From NCBI GenBank assembly GCA_949132985.1, contig CASCGD010000003.1, positions 1,147-65,146 of the forward strand: a stretch of 64,000 bases of DNA. Direction: 5' to 3'. Position 1 is the stretch's first letter. Each line of letters opens with the position of its first letter. This document shows, one piece after another, positions 35,250-44,710 of the stretch. Both the position numbers and the translations under genes were made by a program. The notes below the pieces were generated by a model. That model did not search any database and had not been told where the DNA came from. It saw only the letters and a program-made list of their open reading frames with translations. Source of the stretch: an uncultured Lachnospiraceae bacterium (GTDB lineage Bacteria; Bacillota; Clostridia; Lachnospirales; Lachnospiraceae).

Positions 35250-35552
35250 ATGGAAGTTGTATATGATAGAGGCTACATGCGCGAAGCTATGTCGGAGGCG
35301 GAACAGAAAAGTATTTCTTCCTGCGTCAACACGATTGCGTCCACTGCATATGGAACCGTGCCGTATGCACGGGAAATGGGGCTGAAACAGATATTGCCGC
35401 GGAATAATTCTGAAATGGCAAAGAATGAATATGCGACAGAGCTCGTGGATGCTGTTGAGAGCTGGGAGGAGCGGGTGGGTGTAAAAGAAGTTATATTTGA
35501 GGAGAATTGTGAAGTGAAGGTGGTGGTTGAATATGGCGGGCAGCTCGATTGA
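35250..35552 (+). CDS. Baseplate wedge gp25/gpW-like
   Basis: T..GTVPY.REMG...WE.R. Confidence 0.8.
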   Translation: MEVVYDRGYMREAMSEAEQKSISSCVNTIASTAYGTVPYAREMGLKQILPRNNSEMAKNEYATELVDAVESWEERVGVKEVIFEENCEVKVVVEYGGQLD

Positions 35553-36687
35553 AAATTTGCCGGAGATATCGATTTTAGATGATGAAGGAATCACTCTCGA
35601 ATCAATACAAAACGAGATGATCTCTGACTATGAACAGCGATATCAAGAGATAACCGGGCAGGAAATCGCATTGCATCCGGCAGACGAAGACCGGATTAAA
35701 CTCATGGTGGTAGCGGGAATGTATTATCAACTATGCGTTATCATGAATGAAAATTATAAAATGAACTTTTTGCCAAACATGTATGGCGACAGGTTGAAAA
35801 ACTGGGCGGCAAATTTTGGATTTGTGGAAGATGGCGTAAGGCGGGCGACGGTGACCTTGCGCTTTTTTGCATCTAAAATACAGGAGTTTGCTATAGGGAT
35901 ACCGCAGGGGACACGGGCGACTGCCGGAGACAGTATTTTTTTTGCTACAGATGAATATGCGGAAATACTGCCGGGCGAAGAGTACGTGGATGTGCCCGCT
36001 ACATGCACGCAGGATGGAAAGGCCGGAAATGAGTATCAGGCCGGGAAGATAGAAATACTCGTCGATCCGGTAAATATGATACGTGGAGTAGTCAATGTTT
36101 CTGACAGCGACGGCGGCCATGATGCGTACACAGACGATGAGTTAAGAGAGCTGGTATTAAATTTCCCGTCTACGTATTCGACCGCAGGCCCGGAAGAAGG
36201 GTATATACAGCTTGTCAGGCAATGCAGCGACCGGATTGTAAGCGTGAGGAAAATTGAAGCGGAAGAAGCGGTCGTCAGGATGTGCATTATGTGCGAAGGA
36301 GGAAAGATCCCGGATGAAGATTATTGCGAACAGATATTGCAGCGCATCAAGGCTTTAAAGTGCACGCCGGATACGGACAAAGTTGAAATTGTCGCTCCCG
36401 AGGTTATCGAGTACGAACTGGATATAACCTACTATATTTCCGAGGATAAGAAGGATATTGCAGAGTCTATTAAAACGGGCGTCGGGGAGGCTGTGGTATC
36501 TTTTACCGAATTTACGCAGGAAAATATAGGGCATGATATAAATCCGGATATCTTGACGGCGTATACAAGTGCGGCAGGGGCAAGACGGATTGTAATTCAT
36601 GCGCCGGAATACACCGTCATCAGGGAAAACCAGATTGCGATATGTAAATTAGTAGATGTGAAATACGGAGGGCTGGAGCAGGACTGA
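35533..36687 (+). CDS. Baseplate J-like protein
   Basis: IPQGTR, G..GN, GG.D..TD.ELR, STAGP. Confidence 0.92.
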   Translation: MAGSSIENLPEISILDDEGITLESIQNEMISDYEQRYQEITGQEIALHPADEDRIKLMVVAGMYYQLCVIMNENYKMNFLPNMYGDRLKNWAANFGFVEDGVRRATVTLRFFASKIQEFAIGIPQGTRATAGDSIFFATDEYAEILPGEEYVDVPATCTQDGKAGNEYQAGKIEILVDPVNMIRGVVNVSDSDGGHDAYTDDELRELVLNFPSTYSTAGPEEGYIQLVRQCSDRIVSVRKIEAEEAVVRMCIMCEGGKIPDEDYCEQILQRIKALKCTPDTDKVEIVAPEVIEYELDITYYISEDKKDIAESIKTGVGEAVVSFTEFTQENIGHDINPDILTAYTSAAGARRIVIHAPEYTVIRENQIAICKLVDVKYGGLEQD

Positions 36688-36688
36688 T

Positions 36689-37363
36689 ATGTATGATATT
36701 GGAGATGCAGGAGGGTTGTATGCTTCCATGCCGTCGAATATGCAGGATGAAAAAACAGATGCATTTTGTTTTGCAGTCGAACGTCAGGCGGGACGGATCA
36801 GAAATCTATTGCAAAAATTGAACGTGTGGAGCGATCTGGACCATGTAAAGCCAGGCCATTATGATTATGTTGCGGCATGTCTGAGGGCGCTTTATTACAG
36901 ATCAGATTTGCCGGATCATCAAAAACTGGCCGCAATTAAAAGTGCGATGATGACATACCGTTACGCTGGAAGCATGCGAGCAATCGAGGAGCTTTTAAAT
37001 AATGTTTTTTCGGAAGCGGAATTTATACCATGGTACGAATATGGCGGGAAGCCCTTCTGTTTTAAGGTCAAAACAAATGAGACATTGACAGAGAATAACA
37101 CGTCGTATTTTCTCAACATGATCAACAAAGTAAAAAGTGCGCGGGATAAGGTGGAGATAATAGAAGTCACCCGGATTACCCACCGCCCGATACACTCCGG
37201 AACCGGAGGGATTACGCACAGTAAATGTGTGATTTTGGATCATTTTAATGAGAAAAGAAGTACGCATGTCAGGCAGGGTGTCGGAATGGAGGCACAGAGA
37301 ATCCAAAGAAGCGCGATTGTGGCTGAGGATCTTTCTTCTCAAGTAGACACAAAAAATAGGTAA
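36689..37363 (+). CDS. Baseplate wedge / tail protein I
   Basis: PWYEYGGKPF.F...N.VKSAR. Confidence 0.85.
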   Translation: MYDIGDAGGLYASMPSNMQDEKTDAFCFAVERQAGRIRNLLQKLNVWSDLDHVKPGHYDYVAACLRALYYRSDLPDHQKLAAIKSAMMTYRYAGSMRAIEELLNNVFSEAEFIPWYEYGGKPFCFKVKTNETLTENNTSYFLNMINKVKSARDKVEIIEVTRITHRPIHSGTGGITHSKCVILDHFNEKRSTHVRQGVGMEAQRIQRSAIVAEDLSSQVDTKNR

Positions 37364-37381: not shown

Positions 37382-38155
37382 ATGGCAGATTTTAATAATG
37401 CTATCATGACAGACAGCGGCGCGGCACTTTTGGCAAAAGACACTGCCGGTGTCGCTCGAATTAAATTTACCAAGCTGGTAACCGGTTCAGGAGTTTACGC
37501 AGAATCTGAAAAAGCAAGGGAGAATTTACAGTCTTGTACGGGCCTGAAAGAACCAAAGCAGGAGATCCCTTTTTCTTCTATTTCAATGGAAACCGATACA
37601 TGTGTAAAACTTGTTGCGCTTATTTCGAATGCAGAACTTACGACCGGGTATTATGTAAATGAAGTTGGTGTATATGCAGTTGATGAGATGAACGAAGACG
37701 CGGAGCCGGTGCTTTATTCCATCGCGGTTGCAAATATAGCGGATTATTTGCCGCCATATAACGGATTGGTGACATCTACAATCACGCAGGAATATTTTGC
37801 GACGGTAGATAATGCGCTTGAAGTCACAATCCAGACAAACGCCGGGGCCGTGGCTCTTGCGGAAGATTTAGAAGCACTGAAGCAGGAAGTTGACGGGAAA
37901 CAGGATGCAGTTAAGGGGAAAGGGCTGTCAACAGAGGATTATACAACAGACGAAAAACAGAAGCTCGCCGGGATCGATAAAGGTGCAAATAAAACAATTA
38001 TAGACACAGAACTGTCCCCGGAATCCGAAAACCCCGTACAAAACAAGGCAGTGGACGCCGCCATCAAGTCCCTTGGTGCAGCTGTTATTATCAGTGACAC
38101 CGCCCCAGACCGCACAGAAAATGTATTATGGGTAAAACCGGGAGGTAGCACATGA
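37382..38155 (+). CDS. Tail fibre base/stem protein with no apparent receptor-binding domain
   Basis: P2 gpH-like N-terminus (T..G..L.AK, NEVGVYA); GKGLSTEDYT.DEK.KL; ends ISDTAP...VLWVKP. Confidence 0.85.
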   Translation: MADFNNAIMTDSGAALLAKDTAGVARIKFTKLVTGSGVYAESEKARENLQSCTGLKEPKQEIPFSSISMETDTCVKLVALISNAELTTGYYVNEVGVYAVDEMNEDAEPVLYSIAVANIADYLPPYNGLVTSTITQEYFATVDNALEVTIQTNAGAVALAEDLEALKQEVDGKQDAVKGKGLSTEDYTTDEKQKLAGIDKGANKTIIDTELSPESENPVQNKAVDAAIKSLGAAVIISDTAPDRTENVLWVKPGGST

Positions 38156-39039
38156 GCATATTAATACCAAGCACAGAGCCGGGGGTATTGCAGGATGCGG
38201 AGACACTCAAGACGTATAATCCTGATATCGCGGCTTATGAGGAGTGCGATAGCGCGCTGATACCAGCAGATGGTGTTTGGCAGGAGGTATGGCCGGAGCA
38301 CCGGCAGGAGGTACATTATCTGATGCTCTATGACCGGGGCAATGAATGTATGGATGTCACTGGCGGATGGGAATATGTGCAAGAAGCCGGAATGCATAAC
38401 GCAGCATATATAGGCGAAGGAATTTGGCGTACAAAGCGAGAGATTGATTTTTCGGCCTATCCGAAAGGGATGGCGAACAGGCAGGCGCGCTTTATCTCTG
38501 GGTCAAGTCCTCGCAATTACACCTATATTTTCTCGCATGGCTCCTACCTGGAACCCGTGAACAAAAATAGCTATAAGGGATTTGTGTCATTTGACACAGA
38601 ATCCCCGACCAATTTTGTGCCATATATCTATGTATATAGCAATACTTATTATCCAACTACGAACAGAGGAGAAAGAAGGAGCGATTGTTTGTATATCTAT
38701 CATAATTACACCAGCTATTCGGAAACGGAAGAATATGTATATAGCCTTTGGGTGTATCAAGACGACGATTGGCAGACGTGGCTATCAAAGGCAGGGCTGG
38801 ACGCCGCATCTTATGACACACTCGATAGCGTGATGCAGGATGCGGCAGCTCTTGGCGTGCTGCTTGCATCAAGGCAAGCGGTGTCTTACATGATCTACCA
38901 GTGCACCGGTAGTGTTATGGTATCGGCTATCCAGTCAAAGGCATTTTTGGCGGCGCTGGAGGGTAGCCCATATAAGGACAAGATATATGCAAACGAGCAT
39001 TGGGACAAATTTTTGACGATGGTCGGGGTAGAGTTGTAA
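38152..39039 (+). CDS. Tail-tip protein 0 (no leader; ATGA-coupled to the stem gene)
   Basis: Shared N-module ending WQEVWP; LYDRGNECMDVTGGW. Confidence 0.75.
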   Translation: MSILIPSTEPGVLQDAETLKTYNPDIAAYEECDSALIPADGVWQEVWPEHRQEVHYLMLYDRGNECMDVTGGWEYVQEAGMHNAAYIGEGIWRTKREIDFSAYPKGMANRQARFISGSSPRNYTYIFSHGSYLEPVNKNSYKGFVSFDTESPTNFVPYIYVYSNTYYPTTNRGERRSDCLYIYHNYTSYSETEEYVYSLWVYQDDDWQTWLSKAGLDAASYDTLDSVMQDAAALGVLLASRQAVSYMIYQCTGSVMVSAIQSKAFLAALEGSPYKDKIYANEHWDKFLTMVGVEL

Positions 39040-39050
39040 GGAGGAATTAT

Positions 39051-39080
39051 ATGTGTAAGGTTTTTAAGGGGGGGGGGTAA
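39051..39080 (+). promoter_or_regulatory. Leader ORF 1 (MCKVFKGGG*) with G10 tract at 39068-39077
   Basis: AAGGAGG RBS, ATG 39051, TAA directly after the tract. Confidence 0.8.
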
Positions 39081-39107
39081 AACCCCGCGCAGCGCCGCAG
39101 GTGGCGT

Positions 39108-39752
39108 ATGGCAGTAATGGTATGGGACAGCAACAGCCAGGCGTTTGCAGATGCAGAGCCGCCGCTTGCCTATAATCAGCAGCTTGACGCATGGCAGGAG
39201 ACAGAGGGCAATCTGTACAATCCTGGCATTGAGGCGTGGGAAAAGGTGTGGCCAGCAGATGTAAAAGTATATATGGATGCAACCCTTGGATGGCCGCTGG
39301 CAGATGGGCAGACGCTTGGGGCAGACGGATTTGCCCGTCAGAATGCAGACGGGTCGTATACGATCCGGGCGCAGGACGACTCACATACGGTAGTCGGGTG
39401 TAAGGGCATCACATTTGAGCCGCCACAGGGACGCTCTAAGATACACATGACGCTTGACAGTTATAGCCGGAACAATGTCGGGGGCACAAATAACTATGTT
39501 GCTGTCTATGTTGTTGCAAGTAATGTATTAGAGCAAGCCTCGATAGACGCGGCGCAGATCGTATTTAATTCTGTCGCAAAAGGAACTGGCCGTGGCGACG
39601 AAACCGAGCCGGTAGAGATAGGGAAGGATACTGTTATTGATATCAGCCAATACAAATCGTACAGATATTTTTGTATCGGCACATCAACTGGTAGTGGGGG
39701 ATGGTCTACGGGCTGGACGGAGATCACGGTTAGCAATATATATTTTGAGTAA
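39108..39752 (+). CDS. Variable tail-tip protein 1
   Basis: Shared ~48-aa N-module ending AWEKVWP; divergent beta-rich C-domain. Confidence 0.8.
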   Translation: MAVMVWDSNSQAFADAEPPLAYNQQLDAWQETEGNLYNPGIEAWEKVWPADVKVYMDATLGWPLADGQTLGADGFARQNADGSYTIRAQDDSHTVVGCKGITFEPPQGRSKIHMTLDSYSRNNVGGTNNYVAVYVVASNVLEQASIDAAQIVFNSVAKGTGRGDETEPVEIGKDTVIDISQYKSYRYFCIGTSTGSGGWSTGWTEITVSNIYFE

Positions 39753-39765
39753 AGGAGGGAAATAT

Positions 39766-39858
39766 ATGTGTAAAATCAGATCGGGGGGGGTAAAACCTCG
39801 CGCGGCGCCGCAGGTGCGGTATGCCGTTAGTATGGAACAATCGGCTGCAGGCCTTTGA
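39766..39858 (+). promoter_or_regulatory. Leader ORF 2 (MCKIRSGGVKP...) with G8 tract at 39783-39790
   Basis: AAAGGAGG RBS; overlaps the tip ATG out of frame. Confidence 0.8.
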
Positions 39859-40444
39859 GGAGTCGGAGCTGCCGCTTACCTACAATCCTGCCGTAGATGC
39901 ATGGCAGGACACGGAGGGCCTTGTATACAACCACGAGCTGGATGCGTGGGAAAAAGTCTGGCCGGAAATTATCTATTTTGTCAAAAACGGCGTACCGCAA
40001 GCAGGATATACCTGGGCGGACACCTACAAAGGAAATGACGGGAATGCTGGAAGTTATTCCGCGCGGACAGACGGAGATTATTTTGCCCTGTCTGTTAGCG
40101 GGACTGCCACAGCTGGCAAAATGATTGTGTTCCCCGCAATTGAAAAGGCGGGGACATTATGTGCGGAAGATATTGCGGTTACTGCTACGCATGGTAACAA
40201 CCATGTACATTTTGGCTTTGCGCGCGTTGACAGCGCTGGAAAGACAATTATATACGGCGAGGTAGCGGGTGGGTCCAGCGGGTGGGCGTATTGCCTGCCG
40301 CCTAACAGCACCGGAGGCAGCATAGACATATTGCAAAATGAGTTGTCTGCGGGCAGCTGCCCGAAACTTGGGATCTACTGCAACAATTATTATGGATTTT
40401 CCGGCACGCTGCAGATCCGGAATCTCTATTTTGTACCTAATTAA
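39821..40444 (+). CDS. Variable tail-tip protein 2
   Basis: Shared N-module; divergent C-domain. Confidence 0.8.
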   Translation: MPLVWNNRLQAFEESELPLTYNPAVDAWQDTEGLVYNHELDAWEKVWPEIIYFVKNGVPQAGYTWADTYKGNDGNAGSYSARTDGDYFALSVSGTATAGKMIVFPAIEKAGTLCAEDIAVTATHGNNHVHFGFARVDSAGKTIIYGEVAGGSSGWAYCLPPNSTGGSIDILQNELSAGSCPKLGIYCNNYYGFSGTLQIRNLYFVPN

Positions 40445-40457
40445 GGGAGGGAAATAT

Positions 40458-40550
40458 ATGTGTAAAATAAGATCGGGGGGGGTAAACCTCCGCGGGCATC
40501 CGCAGGTGCGGTATGCCGTTAATATGGGACAAACAATTACAGGCGTTTAG
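40458..40550 (+). promoter_or_regulatory. Leader ORF 3 (MCKIRSGGVNL...) with G8 tract at 40475-40482
   Basis: GGGAGG RBS; overlaps the tip ATG out of frame. Confidence 0.8.
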
Positions 40551-41151
40551 AGAGTCAGGGACGCCGCTGGCCTACAACCCTGGGCTGGGAGCATGGCAGG
40601 AAACCGAAGGATGTGTTTATAACTCGCAGCTGGGTGCATGGGAAAAAGTCTGGCCAGGCGAATTATATCTGTACAAGGACGGTGACGAGTGCACGGATAT
40701 TACAGGCGGATGGAAATATCAGCCTTACAATTATTATTCATCAGCATTTACCTGCAAAATGCCAACTATCGAAAGGAGGGCCGACAGCCTATATACAAGG
40801 CTGGTATTTGGACGATCGTTTAATTGCGCTTTAATCGGCACAGCAAATATCATTGATACATCGCGCTACACAAAGATGTGTTGTGAGGTCTCGGGCACAT
40901 GCTCATCAACTAACGCGGCATGTTGGGGCGAAATAGCGGCTTTTGCTGGTGGATACAGCTATAATTATAAAAAACAATACGGATGTGAGATCTGTTACGG
41001 CGGATATGGAGGACACTATGCATCGTCCAATCACGCGCTGTTGGAACTTGATATAACTGATATCAGCAGTGCGGCATTTGCGATAGAGCATGTCTGTGAT
41101 TCGATTGCGGCCCCGGATTTTGTGCAATTATTTAAGTTATGGCTTGAGTAG
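40513..41151 (+). CDS. Variable tail-tip protein 3
   Basis: Shared N-module; LYKDGDECTDITGGW; ends KLWLE. Confidence 0.8.
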   Translation: MPLIWDKQLQAFRESGTPLAYNPGLGAWQETEGCVYNSQLGAWEKVWPGELYLYKDGDECTDITGGWKYQPYNYYSSAFTCKMPTIERRADSLYTRLVFGRSFNCALIGTANIIDTSRYTKMCCEVSGTCSSTNAACWGEIAAFAGGYSYNYKKQYGCEICYGGYGGHYASSNHALLELDITDISSAAFAIEHVCDSIAAPDFVQLFKLWLE

Positions 41152-41202
41152 GGATGCGCCGCATCTCTTTAATTTTACAAAAAAATGAAAGGAAGAGAAT
41201 TA

Positions 41203-41592
41203 ATGGGAAAAATCGTATTTGGCAACAAGGAAATTATCACACAAAGCGTATACCCATACGCGTACAGCAACGGAAAAGTAGTACTAAGGGTGTCAGCACG
41301 CGAAGAAGATGTGTCAGAGAATGACCTGAAACAGCTCAAAGACAATATGCTCCCGATTGAATACTATGAGTGCAAAACAGTCATGGACGCAGAGACGGGA
41401 GCTCTCACAGAAACGGATGCATGGGAACTGAAGGCAACCTATGATAACTACGACTCCGGCGAGTACGTATCATCCTACAAGGACGGCGTATACTCCTGCG
41501 AGATAACGCGTGTGGGAGAAACAGAAAAGGCCGTCCGCAGGAACACGGCAGATATCGCCTATCTTGGTATCATGGCCGGGGTAGAGCTGTAA
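41203..41592 (+). CDS. XkdW-like tail fibre accessory protein
   Basis: Ends ADIAYLGIMAGVEL; lies near the XkdX-like gene. Confidence 0.6.
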   Translation: MGKIVFGNKEIITQSVYPYAYSNGKVVLRVSAREEDVSENDLKQLKDNMLPIEYYECKTVMDAETGALTETDAWELKATYDNYDSGEYVSSYKDGVYSCEITRVGETEKAVRRNTADIAYLGIMAGVEL

Positions 41593-41603
41593 GGAGGATA
41601 TAT

Positions 41604-41672
41604 ATGTGTAAGATTTTTAAGGGGGGGGGTAAAACCCCGCGCAGCGCCGCAGGTGATCTATGGCGTTGCTGA
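41604..41672 (+). promoter_or_regulatory. Leader ORF 4 (MCKIFKGGGKTPRSAAGDLWRC*) with G9 tract at 41621-41629
   Basis: AAGGAGG RBS; stop begins 10 nt after the A of the tip ATG. Confidence 0.8.
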
Positions 41673-42298
41673 TACCGGATGTCGCGGGTGTCTATATAGA
41701 TCAAAAGCCGCCGCTTATCTACAACCATCAGCTAGAGGCATGGCAGGACACCGAGGGATACGCGCATGACAATGCATTTGAGGCGTGGCGCAAGATCTGG
41801 CCGGAGAAGTTATATTTATATACGGATGGCGATGAGTGCGTAGATGTAACGGAAGGGTACGACGGAATTTATACAGAAACAGGCGCGTTTATCACAAAGG
41901 GCCCTGACTCCATAAAAATTTTTGCAGATCGTGGCGATGGTTGGAAACTTGCAAAATTCTGCTCAAGGAATAAGGTGGATTTTACAAAATACAAAAAGCT
42001 TCGTGCGGTTATGTCTGGCAGGGCATGGGATGTTGTCAGTCCAACTGGAACTATCTATAATTGCATTTCAGCACATATATCTTTCTTCCACACGTATTCC
42101 AATGAATGGGGAGATGGGCAGGATCTTGATGTGCCACAATCCATATTACCGTTTAATCAGACTCATAATTTTGAAATGCCGTACAAAGAGTATGTATTAA
42201 ATATTCCGGACGAAGCCGCATATATCGGATGGCGGTCACATGTTGGATTAACCGGAGGAAAGTATGAATTCCGCATCAAACAACTATGGCTGGAATAA
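41660..42298 (+). CDS. Variable tail-tip protein 4
   Basis: Shared N-module; LYTDGDECVDVTEG; ends KQLWLE. Confidence 0.8.
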   Translation: MALLIPDVAGVYIDQKPPLIYNHQLEAWQDTEGYAHDNAFEAWRKIWPEKLYLYTDGDECVDVTEGYDGIYTETGAFITKGPDSIKIFADRGDGWKLAKFCSRNKVDFTKYKKLRAVMSGRAWDVVSPTGTIYNCISAHISFFHTYSNEWGDGQDLDVPQSILPFNQTHNFEMPYKEYVLNIPDEAAYIGWRSHVGLTGGKYEFRIKQLWLE

Positions 42299-42326
42299 AT
42301 CAAACAAAGAAAGCGAGGAAAAGACC

Positions 42327-42467
42327 ATGAACGTAAAAGAATTAGCAAAGAAATATTATCCCACCTATTGGGATATCAACCGCATGCGCAATCTTGTAGC
42401 GGCAGGCAAGTTGTCTGAGGCAGACTATCAGGAGATCACAGGCAGTACATACCGCGCCACGGAGTAA
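42327..42467 (+). CDS. XkdX-family protein
   Basis: KKYY..YW......LV..GKLS..DYQEITG..Y. Confidence 0.85.
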   Translation: MNVKELAKKYYPTYWDINRMRNLVAAGKLSEADYQEITGSTYRATE

Positions 42468-42477
42468 GGAGGATTAG

Positions 42478-42546
42478 ATGTGTAAGATTTTTAGGGGGGG
42501 GGGTAAAGCACCCTCGCGCAGCGCCGCAGGTGCGGTATGCCGTTAA
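42478..42546 (+). promoter_or_regulatory. Leader ORF 5 (MCKIFRGGGKAPSRSAAGAVCR*) with G10 tract at 42494-42503
   Basis: AAGGAGG RBS; stop begins 7 nt after the A of the tip ATG. Confidence 0.8.
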
Positions 42547-43125
42547 TATGGGACAAACAATTAAAAGCATTTGTAGACACGGCTCCGCCGCTGCTCTACG
42601 ACCCGGCCATAGAGGCCTACGGAGATACCGAGGGTTATGTGCACGACAATGCACTTGAGGCTTGGCGCAAAGTCTGGCCCGCACGGCTGTATCTCTATCA
42701 TGAGGGTGGAGAGTGTGCAGGTATTACCGGTGGATGGGATGCGTATCCATACAAACTTACGGGATGGGGGGAGCGAGCTTGCGCCAACTCTGGTTAAAGG
42801 GGTATCCGATATGAGCGCATCAATGCAGAGCCCATATGCGGGAGCAGTAGCGACATGTGCCACCATACAGATAGACAGGTTTGGCAAGTTATGTGCTATA
42901 TGCTCTGGGAGCGCGCAGATACACTCGGGAGTTACGTTGTGTTTGGCACCGGTTATATCGGAAAGCCAACGAGAGGTTGCTGTATATTCCGTTATTGATA
43001 TGGGAACTACAAAAACAGATGAACAGATTATTGCAGATATATCGCAGATAAGCGGAAGCCAACATGTGATCTTTCGGATGGTTGCTAATTGTAATGTAAC
43101 AATCAAGCAAGTATGGCTTGAGTAA
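42537..43125 (+). pseudogene. Variable tail-tip protein 5, frameshifted at G6 (42766-42771)
   Basis: Removing one G joins 42537..42797 to 42637..43125, giving a product ending KQVWLE. Confidence 0.8.
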
Positions 43126-43178
43126 GGGGATGCGATCGCATCTCTTTCATTTTGTAAAAAGAGGGGAGGGAGATAATC

Positions 43179-43505
43179 ATGACCGTGGATATAAGCACGC
43201 TGATACTTGCTATGTCGATTCCGTCCGCTGTGACCGGTTTTTGCTTTTGGCTTATGGAGCGGCGCATCGAAAAGCGGGAAAAAGAAAGGGAACGGAAAGA
43301 GGCAATCCGGGAGAAGAGCGAGATACTTACTGTGAAAGGAATCGGCGCAGCGATCGCGCTGGGAGAAGCGACAGCGGAAGCAGTATCCAGAATACCGGAT
43401 ACGCATTGTAACGGCGACATGCATAAAGCGCTGGAATATGCCAGAAGCGTTAAGCATGAGCAAAAGGATTTCTTCGTTGAACAGGGAATCCATGAAATTT
43501 ATTGA
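43179..43505 (+). CDS. Holin-like / lysis-associated membrane protein
   Basis: N-terminal TM; CNGDMHKAL; lysis-cassette position. Confidence 0.65.
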   Translation: MTVDISTLILAMSIPSAVTGFCFWLMERRIEKREKERERKEAIREKSEILTVKGIGAAIALGEATAEAVSRIPDTHCNGDMHKALEYARSVKHEQKDFFVEQGIHEIY

Positions 43506-43519
43506 AGGAGGGAAAAATC

Positions 43520-43681
43520 GTGATCCAGATCACACAAATGAACGGAACATACAACGAATGGAAACCCGAACAGTACACTGATTATATGTATGATGGCAAG
43601 TGCTTTATCATTATGCGCGGTGAAAAATGGGTAGGAATCTATAACATGGATGCAATCAGGAGCATCGTAATCGACCAGTAA
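43520..43681 (+). CDS. Small hypothetical protein (53 aa)
   Basis: AAGGAGG RBS then GTG; hand-translated. Confidence 0.55.
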   Translation: MIQITQMNGTYNEWKPEQYTDYMYDGKCFIIMRGEKWVGIYNMDAIRSIVIDQ

Positions 43682-43695
43682 AGGGGGAAATCACA

Positions 43696-43935
43696 ATGAA
43701 AGGAATCAACTGGACAAGGAAACTCACGAGCCGCAAATTCTGGGCGGCAGTCACGTCGTTTGTCTCGATGATGATTATGGCCACAGGCGGCACACAGGGC
43801 ACCGCGGAGCAGATAACGGCGCTTATTATGGCGGGCGCATCGGTTGTGGCGTATATCGTCGCGGAGGGTCTTACGGATGCGGCAAACACTGCCGCTGCCG
43901 GCATCGAGATCGAGGAGGGAACCGATGAAAATTAA
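43696..43935 (+). CDS. Holin
   Basis: INW.RKLTSRKFW, two TM, YI.AEG..DA. Confidence 0.85.
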   Translation: MKGINWTRKLTSRKFWAAVTSFVSMMIMATGGTQGTAEQITALIMAGASVVAYIVAEGLTDAANTAAAGIEIEEGTDEN

Positions 43936-44710
43936 AATAAAACTTGCATCCAAACACAACTACGGAGGATGGCGGGATACAAAACAGATCAAATACATCG
44001 TCCTGCATTATACCGCGGTTGATGGAGACAGCGACGAGGGTAATGCAAGCTACTTTGCAAGGCCGCACGATCCCAAGACGTCGGCACATTATTTTGTGGA
44101 TGACGACTCAATTACGCAGTCCGCGCCAGATAATTACATTGCCTATGCAGTCGGCGGCAAGCGCTGGGAGGACTGCAGGCAGACCGGAGGCGGCAAACTC
44201 TACGGCAAGGCCACCAATGCCAACACAATCAATATCGAGATGTGCGACAGCAAAAAGGACGGTGTGATCATGGCGCAGCCTGCGACGATCACGCGCACGA
44301 TCAAGCTGGTACGCCTGCTGATGGACAAGTACAATATCGATATCGATCATGTGATCAGACACTTTGACGTCAACGGCAAGCACTGCCCGGCCTATTACAT
44401 GGATGCGGGAGCGTGGGCTGCATTTAAGGCGCGCATCCTTGGCTACAGGGCCGGCAACAAGTACAGGACGGCCAAGCCCTGCTATCTGCGCCTCTCACCT
44501 GCTGGCAAAAAGCTCACCTATGAGGAGGCACCGGATCACATCAAGGCAAAATCCATAAAAAAGAAGGGGTATATCTCCTTCAAAAAAGGCGCGATCTTCA
44601 AGCTTGTCGAAGTTGCCGAAAAGAACGGCGATCTCTGGGGCAGGATGAAAACCGGCTATTGGGTACCGCTGCGCTATAAGAGCGCCCTGCGGGCGATCAT
44701 CTGCAAATAG
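43925..44710 (+). CDS. Endolysin, N-acetylmuramoyl-L-alanine amidase (Amidase_2)
   Basis: YIVLHYT, SAHYFVD, IEMC, RHFDVNGKHCP. Confidence 0.93.
   Translation: MKIKIKLASKHNYGGWRDTKQIKYIVLHYTAVDGDSDEGNASYFARPHDPKTSAHYFVDDDSITQSAPDNYIAYAVGGKRWEDCRQTGGGKLYGKATNANTINIEMCDSKKDGVIMAQPATITRTIKLVRLLMDKYNIDIDHVIRHFDVNGKHCPAYYMDAGAWAAFKARILGYRAGNKYRTAKPCYLRLSPAGKKLTYEEAPDHIKAKSIKKKGYISFKKGAIFKLVEVAEKNGDLWGRMKTGYWVPLRYKSALRAIICK

Follow-up and report, generated by a model that had tools for sequence, protein, structure and literature searches.

Why does each of five related tail-tip genes in a single prophage follow a tiny leader open reading frame (ORF) that contains an uninterrupted tract of G residues? 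The genes are located in a stretch of 64,000 nucleotides from an uncultured Lachnospiraceae bacterium (assembly GCA_949132985.1, contig CASCGD010000003.1, positions 1,147 to 65,146 of the forward strand). This whole stretch is called the window below, and the tail end of the prophage, which is of the contractile-tail type and comes from the mouse gut, lies within it. An earlier reading of the letters alone, without database searches (the sequence-only reading), had proposed that the length of each tract decides, by translational coupling, whether the tip gene behind it is expressed. The analysis described here supports this proposal in part; judged from its sequence organization, the feature is probably a leader-ORF switch that controls accessory tail tips by phase variation.

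Structure of the leader units

The five leader units share one plan, in which a ribosome-binding site (RBS) is followed by ATG-TGT-AAR, a G tract, TAAA, a GC-rich spacer with AGGTG, and the ATG of the tip gene (Table 1). The G tracts of units 1 to 5 comprise 10, 8, 8, 9, and 10 residues, and the TAA after each tract is positioned 30, 30, 30, 30, and 33 nt upstream of the tip ATG, in frame with the tip. Because of this register, no tract length fuses the leader to the tip. What changes with the repeat is the stop position of the leader, since each G gained or lost moves the stop among three positions. In state a, the leader ends early at the TAA directly behind the tract. In state b, it is read in the GGT-AAA frame, which stops at +7, +7, +7, +10, and +7 relative to the tip ATG in the five units. 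In state c, it is read in the GTA-AA frame, which stops at +65, +35, +35, +107, and +119. The units of the window are at present in states a, c, c, b, and b. The anatomy, coordinates, tract lengths, and in-frame TAA matched the sequence-only reading to the base, its statement that the tract is unable to fuse leader and tip held, and re-reading of the frames returned the same three outcomes and the same current states.

The pattern of five units is not due to chance, because only one other G tract of at least seven residues occurs in the 64 kb, a G8 at 1282-1289. This G8 is found in an AT-rich intergenic stretch without a tip-type leader. The leader unit is conserved more strongly than the coding sequence on its 3' side. 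A GGAGG motif 5-7 nt upstream of the leader ATG, the ATG itself, and a low predicted opening energy of the start site suggest that the leader is translated.

Conservation and distribution of the leaders

Relatives of the locus were recovered by protein look-ups and one pattern scan. Nine other metagenomic contigs contain a leader of the MCK type, including L014, L015, L016, L042 (from a mouse-gut Eubacteriales metagenome-assembled genome), L047, L048, L050, and L060. Together with the window they provide 20 MCK units, with tracts of G7 (two units), G8 (12), G9 (four), and G10 (two). State c is occupied by ten of these units, and states a and b by five each. All 20 keep a GGAGG-type RBS, the ATG, and an uninterrupted tract of G7-G10 followed by TAA or TAG. 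The same architecture was also found with unrelated leader peptides, namely MTKTKIFQRGG and MVLQILFGGG in L053, MAETLIFLGG and MTKNVIFLGGG in L054-L059, and MTERKFGG in L062. At least seven unrelated leader peptides, including those of a second prophage in the same genome, carry this architecture, with the stop after the tract retained as TAA or TAG across leader families, and none of approximately 35 units overall has an interrupted G tract.

The array in the second prophage was found by a general pattern search on contig C88 (L071:2340-5785), which also encodes Tail_P2_I and, further downstream, a Peptidase_M15_4 lysin. Three tandem paralogous genes of 305-341 aa, which are not homologous to the tips, follow Tail_P2_I. 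Each of them is located behind an RBS, a leader of the form M[TMI]KIFRGG, a tract of G9, G8, and G8, respectively, and TAG. Two frames of each leader stop upstream of the gene, and the third ends on a TGA (NTGA) overlapping the start codons ATG, TTG, and GTG of the three genes, respectively. This stop/start overlap register is kept despite a 9-nt difference in spacer length. In this one genome, the poly-G leader is found in two prophages and upstream of two gene families that are unrelated to each other.

The leaders precede extra tips only, and these follow another tip, a 127-135-aa ORF, or XkdX. The first tip, directly 3' of the fibre shaft gene, has an ordinary RBS and is leaderless in the window (38152), L015 (1271), L016 (1057), and L054 (3927). 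In the window, its start overlaps the stop of the shaft gene (ATGA), with no G run upstream. The sole single-tip relative seen, L049, has no leader.

The sequence-only reading had suggested a search for the same pattern in other Clostridia prophages. The pattern is present in metagenomic contigs and on C88, and the tip family was absent from the reference collections. No tip homologue was detected outside this genome among 1,200 sampled reference genomes (400 each of the family, the order, and the class). In IMG/VR, the DNA-pattern scans gave three chance matches, and scans with two protein profiles yielded no confirmed relative. The INPHARED phage collection gave no tblastn match for tip 4 or for protein P0092. 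The pattern scans of metagenomes and genomes returned mostly chance matches, with L042 as the only real one.

Three further arrangements were observed in individual contigs. In L050 (1463-1816), a variant leader, MHRIFRGG with G9, continues in frame into a tip from which the first ~17 codons are missing; the tract is now part of the coding sequence, a second ORF follows, and the fused gene may be a remnant. In L061 (183-2076), an insertion sequence (IS) element with a DDE transposase of 569 aa is located directly upstream of a G8-TAG-spacer-tip unit in which no leader ATG is left, and the insertion appears to have truncated the leader. In L063 (G226:C2:229065-229110, minus strand), from another genus of the family, a 13-codon ORF contains G8 followed by TAA, and in an alternative frame the stop is a TGA overlapping the ATG of an open frame of 278 residues. 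This arrangement may have arisen by chance, or it may represent the same device in front of another gene.

Variation of tract length

Tract lengths were taken from assembled contigs; runs X2, X19, and X3 represent the stretch in part only, and no RNA run contained it. The clearest comparison comes from the phage L054-L059, which was assembled independently from six samples and of which five contigs were aligned over 4.3 kb. The last ~4 kb of this alignment contain two substitutions and two polymorphic tracts (6/8 and 7/8/9). In the six samples, the tract of unit A is G6, 6, 8, 6, 8, and 6, and that of unit B is G8, 7, 7, 8, 9, and 8, and all three states a, b, and c occur in this phage as well. 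One of the two substitutions is a stop codon in the leaderless first tip of L054, which encodes 113 aa compared with 193 aa in L055 (L054:3927-4268 vs L055:3927-4508).

Orthologues of the window units also differ. Unit 4, with identical flanks, has G9 in the window, G8 in L015/X2, and a tract one base shorter in L014, and unit 5 has G10 in the window versus G8 in L015/X2. In addition, Logan contigs of run X1, the probable source sample with 96% of the stretch covered, show G8 and G9 at unit 1 versus G10 in the assembly, and they break inside the tract of unit 4, which suggests that tract length is heterogeneous within one sample.

As in simple-sequence-repeat contingency loci, the length of the tract varies far more than its flanks. 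The claim that the tracts are hypermutable is borne out by the six-sample phage, by the orthologues of units 4 and 5, and by the X1 contigs. Invariant lengths across related prophages had been named beforehand as an outcome that would speak against the switch, and lengths were found to differ. All combinations of states were seen among the relatives, in agreement with the claim that each unit is set independently.

Predicted folding of the start sites

The start sites of the leaders had predicted opening energies of 2.7-7.6 kcal/mol in the window and 4.2-5.4 kcal/mol in the other families, and those of the tips behind leaders had 11.4-18.9 kcal/mol. For leaderless tips the values were 6.9-12.8 kcal/mol (7.1 for the first tip of the window), and for eight of nine other late genes they were 5.5-8.5 kcal/mol. 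The difference between leader-preceded and leaderless tips was significant in a one-sided Mann-Whitney test (p 0.009; one unit per family, six families vs five tips). The tip start site is predicted to pair either locally or with the first codons of the tip. These folding results predict a buried tip start and an open leader start. When a ribosome was placed at the early stop, the predicted opening energy of the tip start did not drop. Since a ribosome held there does not open the start site, state a is predicted to leave the tip masked, which supports its assignment as the OFF state, and only the read-through frames could then open the tip start.

A CCTCC-like C-rich word is positioned 5-15 nt after the tract in most leader families (39081-39100 in the window and equivalents). 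It is complementary to both the G tract and the Shine-Dalgarno sequence of the tip and could pair with either. A hairpin of the G run with this C run, directly after the tract, was the sole consensus structure found. No match to Rfam 15 was obtained in 38000-43600 at E up to 1.

With respect to the read-through frames, one frame in every unit of the seven leader families ends +1, +7, +8, or +10 past the gene start, and no stop interrupts this frame ahead of the start in any of the seven. In unit A of L054 the register is shifted, yet a stop is present at +8 in another frame. Together with the NTGA overlap on C88, the open frame and the L054 stop retain some support for frame b as the active one.

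Two decoding devices were tried as explanations and rejected. Bypassing of the T4 gene 60 type does not fit, since unit 1 offers no GGN codon in frame upstream of the tip ATG on which the ribosome could land, and the units are not all in the same state. A prfB-like +1 shift does not fit either, since CTT-TGA is found in unit 2 only. Neither device is conserved.

Proposed model for the switch

Based on these observations, we suggest the following model. The first tip would be translated constitutively from a start that overlaps the stop of the fibre gene. Each extra tip would have a Shine-Dalgarno sequence and an ATG of its own, both hidden in a local hairpin rich in GC, with a tiny upstream ORF whose start is strong and unstructured, and the tract of 6-10 G residues would set the reading frame of this leader. 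In one frame, the leader would stop right after the tract, 30-41 nt before the tip ATG, so that the ribosome would not reach the hairpin and the tip would be off or low. In a second frame, the leader would be read through the hairpin and end 1-10 nt past the tip start; the hairpin would be melted and the ribosome could restart on the tip, which would be on. In the third frame, the result would differ between units and would probably be off or intermediate. Slipped-strand mispairing at replication, adding or removing one G, would toggle each tip separately and leave the tip protein unchanged. The composition of the virion, and with it the host range, would be expected to follow the frames that are on.

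We consider it reasonably probable that the model as a whole is correct, that is, that the units are independent, heritable, stochastic switches of accessory tips acting by translational coupling. The specific assignment of frame b as ON is held with less confidence than the model as a whole. More tentatively, and with doubt slightly outweighing belief, we propose that the portable poly-G leader cassette is a general and so far undescribed phage device for any accessory tail gene, which would make each gene an independent, heritable, and stochastic three-state switch based on termination-reinitiation, so that a single lysogen lineage would release virions carrying different combinations of glycan-binding tips in addition to a constitutive one.

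Several points weigh against the model. The sequence-only reading had taken the stop just past the tip ATG as the argument for frame b; such a stop is present in every unit, but three or four of the five leaderless tips carry the same +1-frame stop. It is partly a by-product of the protein sequence, because the N-terminal dipeptides V-K, L-I, and M-I often force a stop in the +1 frame. RNAalifold gave no compensatory pairs for the tip-start hairpin, whose register is not conserved, and the z-scores of single-sequence folding energy were mostly not significant. Codon-position variability in the spacer does not identify any frame as selected, frame b included, and the association between leader variant and second codon of the tip (Fisher p 0.018) may reflect linkage only. 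In L015, which has a complete array, none of the extra tips is in state b. The units within a family are paralogues, so the counts overstate independence, and homopolymer length in short-read assemblies carries some error.

Alternative explanations

The same tracts could be phase-variable within a translated leader and act on transcription, either through the position of the ribosome on the leader, which would govern a premature terminator or Rho access, or as part of the spacer of a late promoter. A published precedent with the same logic exists in pil1 of S. gallolyticus (PMC3894217), the hairpin of the G run with the C run is the only consensus structure, and TGTAAR and TAAAAC are 16-18 nt apart across the tract in the window units. 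Such hexamer-like words are, however, absent from the other leader families, and neither a sigma-70-like promoter nor a terminator-like site (stem plus T run) was predicted at any unit, the only terminator-like sites being those after tips 3 and 5. The untranslated gaps measure only 30-40 nt, which is short for Rho loading, and a promoter model needs neither the strong RBS nor the ATG that are conserved in every family, so we regard an effect on transcription as quite unlikely. The G tract might instead be decoded heterogeneously, by transcriptional slippage or by slippage of tRNA-Gly, and give a fixed mixture of outcomes, so that the leader is a dimmer that sets low tip levels and not a heritable on/off switch. 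Runs of 8-10 identical bases and G-rich tracts resembling a Shine-Dalgarno sequence are known slippage sites (dnaX, prfB, IS elements); the leaders contain tracts of this kind, which are prone to slip, and all DNA states persist in nature. Near-identical phages nevertheless differ in tract length at the DNA level, and the G6 tracts of L054 unit A and L062 are short for efficient transcriptional slippage. We find this explanation very unlikely on its own, and slippage at the level of the RNA or the ribosome can act together with DNA-level switching.

The units could also be, in the main, recombination joints for the duplication, loss, and swapping of tip cassettes, with neutral tract variation and with tips translated from their own AGGTG. 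In an X3 contig, leader 4 is connected directly to tip 5 with the joint in the G tract (41620 to 42496), which removes tip 4 and XkdX; the halves before and after the tract occur in different combinations; the repeat includes the last codons of the gene before it (GVEL*), and the cassettes follow unrelated genes (a tip, the 135-aa ORF, or XkdX). Homology by itself, however, requires no RBS, ATG, intact G tract, or adjacent stop, all of which are kept in unrelated leaders. Unselected homopolymers decay by substitution, yet 0 of ~35 tracts are interrupted, and the buried tip start and open leader start would be left unexplained. A recombination joint as the main function is unlikely in our view. 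The X3 joint suggests that leaders mediate the loss and shuffling of cassettes, a role that can coexist with the switch. Finally, the length differences could be homopolymer errors of sequencing or assembly, with the repeated unit as a relic of recent tandem duplication. Homopolymers are error-prone and the lengths come from assembled contigs only, but consensus contigs from independent runs show two-base differences (G6 vs G8), which recur in several samples, and mutually unalignable leader families share the conserved architecture, which a recent duplication would not produce. This explanation is extremely improbable.

Tip proteins and organization of the locus

The five tips have a common N-terminal domain of ~55 residues and divergent C-terminal bodies of ~150 residues, as revealed by alignment. 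An exhaustive profile search found the N-terminal domain in 165 clusters at 50% identity, nearly all of ~200 aa. In the AlphaFold2 model of tip 4 (mean pLDDT 80.8), a beta-sandwich comes after short strands at the N terminus. The best Foldseek matches of this model in the PDB are carbohydrate-binding modules (CBM29, 27, 4, and 16) and C-terminal domains of phage tailspikes and fibres, with TM scores of 0.4-0.55 by target, which indicate the fold class only. Neither Pfam nor PHROGs gave a family for the tips or for the array genes of C88. From position and fold, the five genes are putative receptor-binding tips that belong to no named family.

Based on its weak match to the docking domain, the 295-aa ORF ahead of the array is assigned as a sixth tip, the one without a leader. 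The 135-aa ORF shares with it only the last residues and flanking DNA (GVEL*, TAAGGAGG); homology of the two was considered and rejected, since nothing is alike beyond the last six residues. ORFs of 127-134 aa occupy the place of the 135-aa ORF in L049, L054, and L060.

The sequence-only reading had stated that tip 5 is not intact, and this is correct, since an extra G in a G6 run splits the gene. An intact 195-aa version in the protein database (P0005) passes from the first ORF to the second at this run, the X3 contig has one G fewer than the window here, and intact versions carry G5. The G6 run could be a second slippage site, of the coding type, or a plain mutation.

The gene order from 5' to 3' is gpU-like, LysM, Baseplate_J, Tail_P2_I, the fibre shaft, the series of small genes including XkdX, a holin-like gene, and an Amidase_2 lysin (Table 1). 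Tips 3 and 5 have similar last residues (LWLE), similar downstream DNA, and similar terminator-like hairpins, and the array therefore looks like two duplicated blocks.

Table 1. Coordinates of the tail-tip array and neighbouring features in the window; each tip gene begins at its ATG
Feature	Position	Strand	Details or evidence
Baseplate_J	35527-36687		Pfam scan
Tail_P2_I	36689-37363		Pfam scan
Tail-fibre shaft protein, 257 aa	37382..38155	+	PF12571 Phage_tail_fib N-terminal (tail-collar fibre N-terminal domain); phrog_7037 tail fiber, E 2.6e-40
First tip, 295 aa, leaderless	38152..39039	+	Docking-domain profile, weak: E 1.6e-5 / 1.7e-6
Leader unit 1	39040..39107	+	GGAGG; leader ORF 39051-39080 (MCKVFKGGG*); G10 39068-39077; TAA; GC-rich spacer with AGGTG; state a
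Tip 1, 214 aa	39108..39752	+	N-terminal docking domain, E 1.5e-24 vs family profile
Leader unit 2	39755..39820	+	Leader ATG 39766; G8 39783-39790; state c, leader ORF ends at 39858, 35 nt inside tip 2
Tip 2, 207 aa	39821..40444	+	Family profile and alignment
Leader unit 3	40447..40512	+	Leader ATG 40458; G8 40475-40482; state c, leader ORF ends at 40550
Tip 3, 212 aa	40513..41151	+	Family profile and alignment
Terminator-like hairpin 3' of tip 3	41150..41168	+	Terminator scan
135-aa ORF in XkdW position	41185..41592	+	Without family match in Pfam, PHROGs
Leader unit 4	41593..41659	+	Leader ORF 41604-41672 (MCKIFKGGGKTPRSAAGDLWRC*); G9 41621-41629; state b, stop 10 nt past tip ATG
Tip 4, 212 aa	41660..42298	+	N-terminal docking strands and CBM-like beta-sandwich (model)
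XkdX-family small protein, 67 aa	42264..42467	+	PF09693, E 8.4e-8
Leader unit 5	42468..42536	+	Leader ORF 42478-42546; G10 42494-42503; state b, stop at +7
Tip 5, broken: 86-aa ORF and 162-aa ORF	42537..43125	+	Extra G in G6 run 42766-42771
Terminator-like hairpin 3' of tip 5, ahead of lysis genes	43124..43147	+	Terminator scan
Amidase_2	43844-44710		Pfam scan

Significance

What a phage can infect is limited above all by its host range, and the phages of gut Clostridia can hardly be studied in culture. If the model is true, one prophage would carry a constitutive tip and up to five spare carbohydrate-binding tips, each randomly on or off with its protein undamaged, and this would be a form of bet-hedging distinct from DNA inversion, retroelement mutagenesis, and frameshifts in coding sequences. 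The design is compact (~70 nt), portable, and readable from sequence, so that tract lengths in metagenomes could read out the receptors at which a phage population is currently aimed. For engineering, the unit would offer a stochastic translational switch that is ready to use. For annotators, it would be a caution that ORFs of 8-25 codons and G runs are functional parts and not assembly noise.

Comparison with known systems

The Fletcherviruses, phages of Campylobacter, are described as carrying polyG tracts of high mutability within the genes for their receptor-binding proteins (Sorensen et al. 2021, Cell Rep 35:109214; cited in PMC12823448). As far as the account of that work in the citing article goes, the likeness lies in a phage-encoded G run, several tracts per genome, and slippage that gives rise to subpopulations differing in host-recognition proteins. 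According to the same account, the Fletchervirus tract lies in the coding sequence and frameshifts the protein, whereas the tract described here belongs to a separate leader ORF, is followed by a stop in frame with the tip, and leaves the tip protein unaltered. The five tracts, located 30-33 nt upstream of the tip ATG, are not of the coding type, and only the G6 run in tip 5 fits that description. The contingency loci of T2/T4 and other phages are reported in the abstract of a recent preprint to frameshift genes by mutations that are reversible (Gomez, Barrick and Waters, bioRxiv 10.1101/2025.10.21.683753). They share with the present locus slippage-prone phage repeats for bet-hedging, and the abstract mentions no leader-ORF design of the kind found here.

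The sequence-only reading knew of no precedent for a repeated switch based on a leader ORF, and this claim of novelty needs correcting, since a repeat within a leader ORF has been published for pil1 of S. gallolyticus. There, a GCAGA repeat in the leader ORF sets how far the ribosome reaches over a terminator (Danne et al. 2014, PMC3894217). In both systems a simple repeat in a leader-peptide gene moves the end of the leader, and the reach of the ribosome over a stem-loop sets, or in our case would set, the expression of a gene for a surface structure. The pil1 switch is bacterial, is based on a pentanucleotide, and acts by attenuation at a terminator, whereas the present units belong to a phage, contain a mononucleotide run, have no predicted terminator, and have a predicted stem-loop over the RBS and start codon. 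In addition, one frame ends on the start codon here, suggesting termination-reinitiation, and the unit is repeated before several paralogous genes. Based on these comparisons, the locus is a variant of phage polyG contingency loci and of leader-ORF repeat switches and not a categorically new system.

The biological purpose would be the same as that of two other kinds of system. The invertible tail-fibre segments of Mu (Gin) and P1 (Cin) and the diversity-generating retroelements provide alternative receptor-binding ends from one genome. Unlike in the invertible switches, all tips here are on the + strand; the search for inverted repeats flanking the tips gave only short imperfect matches, none of them significant, and the scan of adjacent ORFs gave no recombinase family. 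With regard to mechanism, classical translational coupling combines termination-reinitiation with the melting of a hairpin and uses overlapping stop and start codons such as ATGA, and Adhin and van Duin reportedly put forward a scanning model of termination-reinitiation. The leader units resemble this arrangement in that an upstream ORF ends a few nucleotides from a downstream start that is predicted to be structured. Unlike in classical coupling, only one register in three allows the arrangement here, and a hypermutable run determines which register is used.

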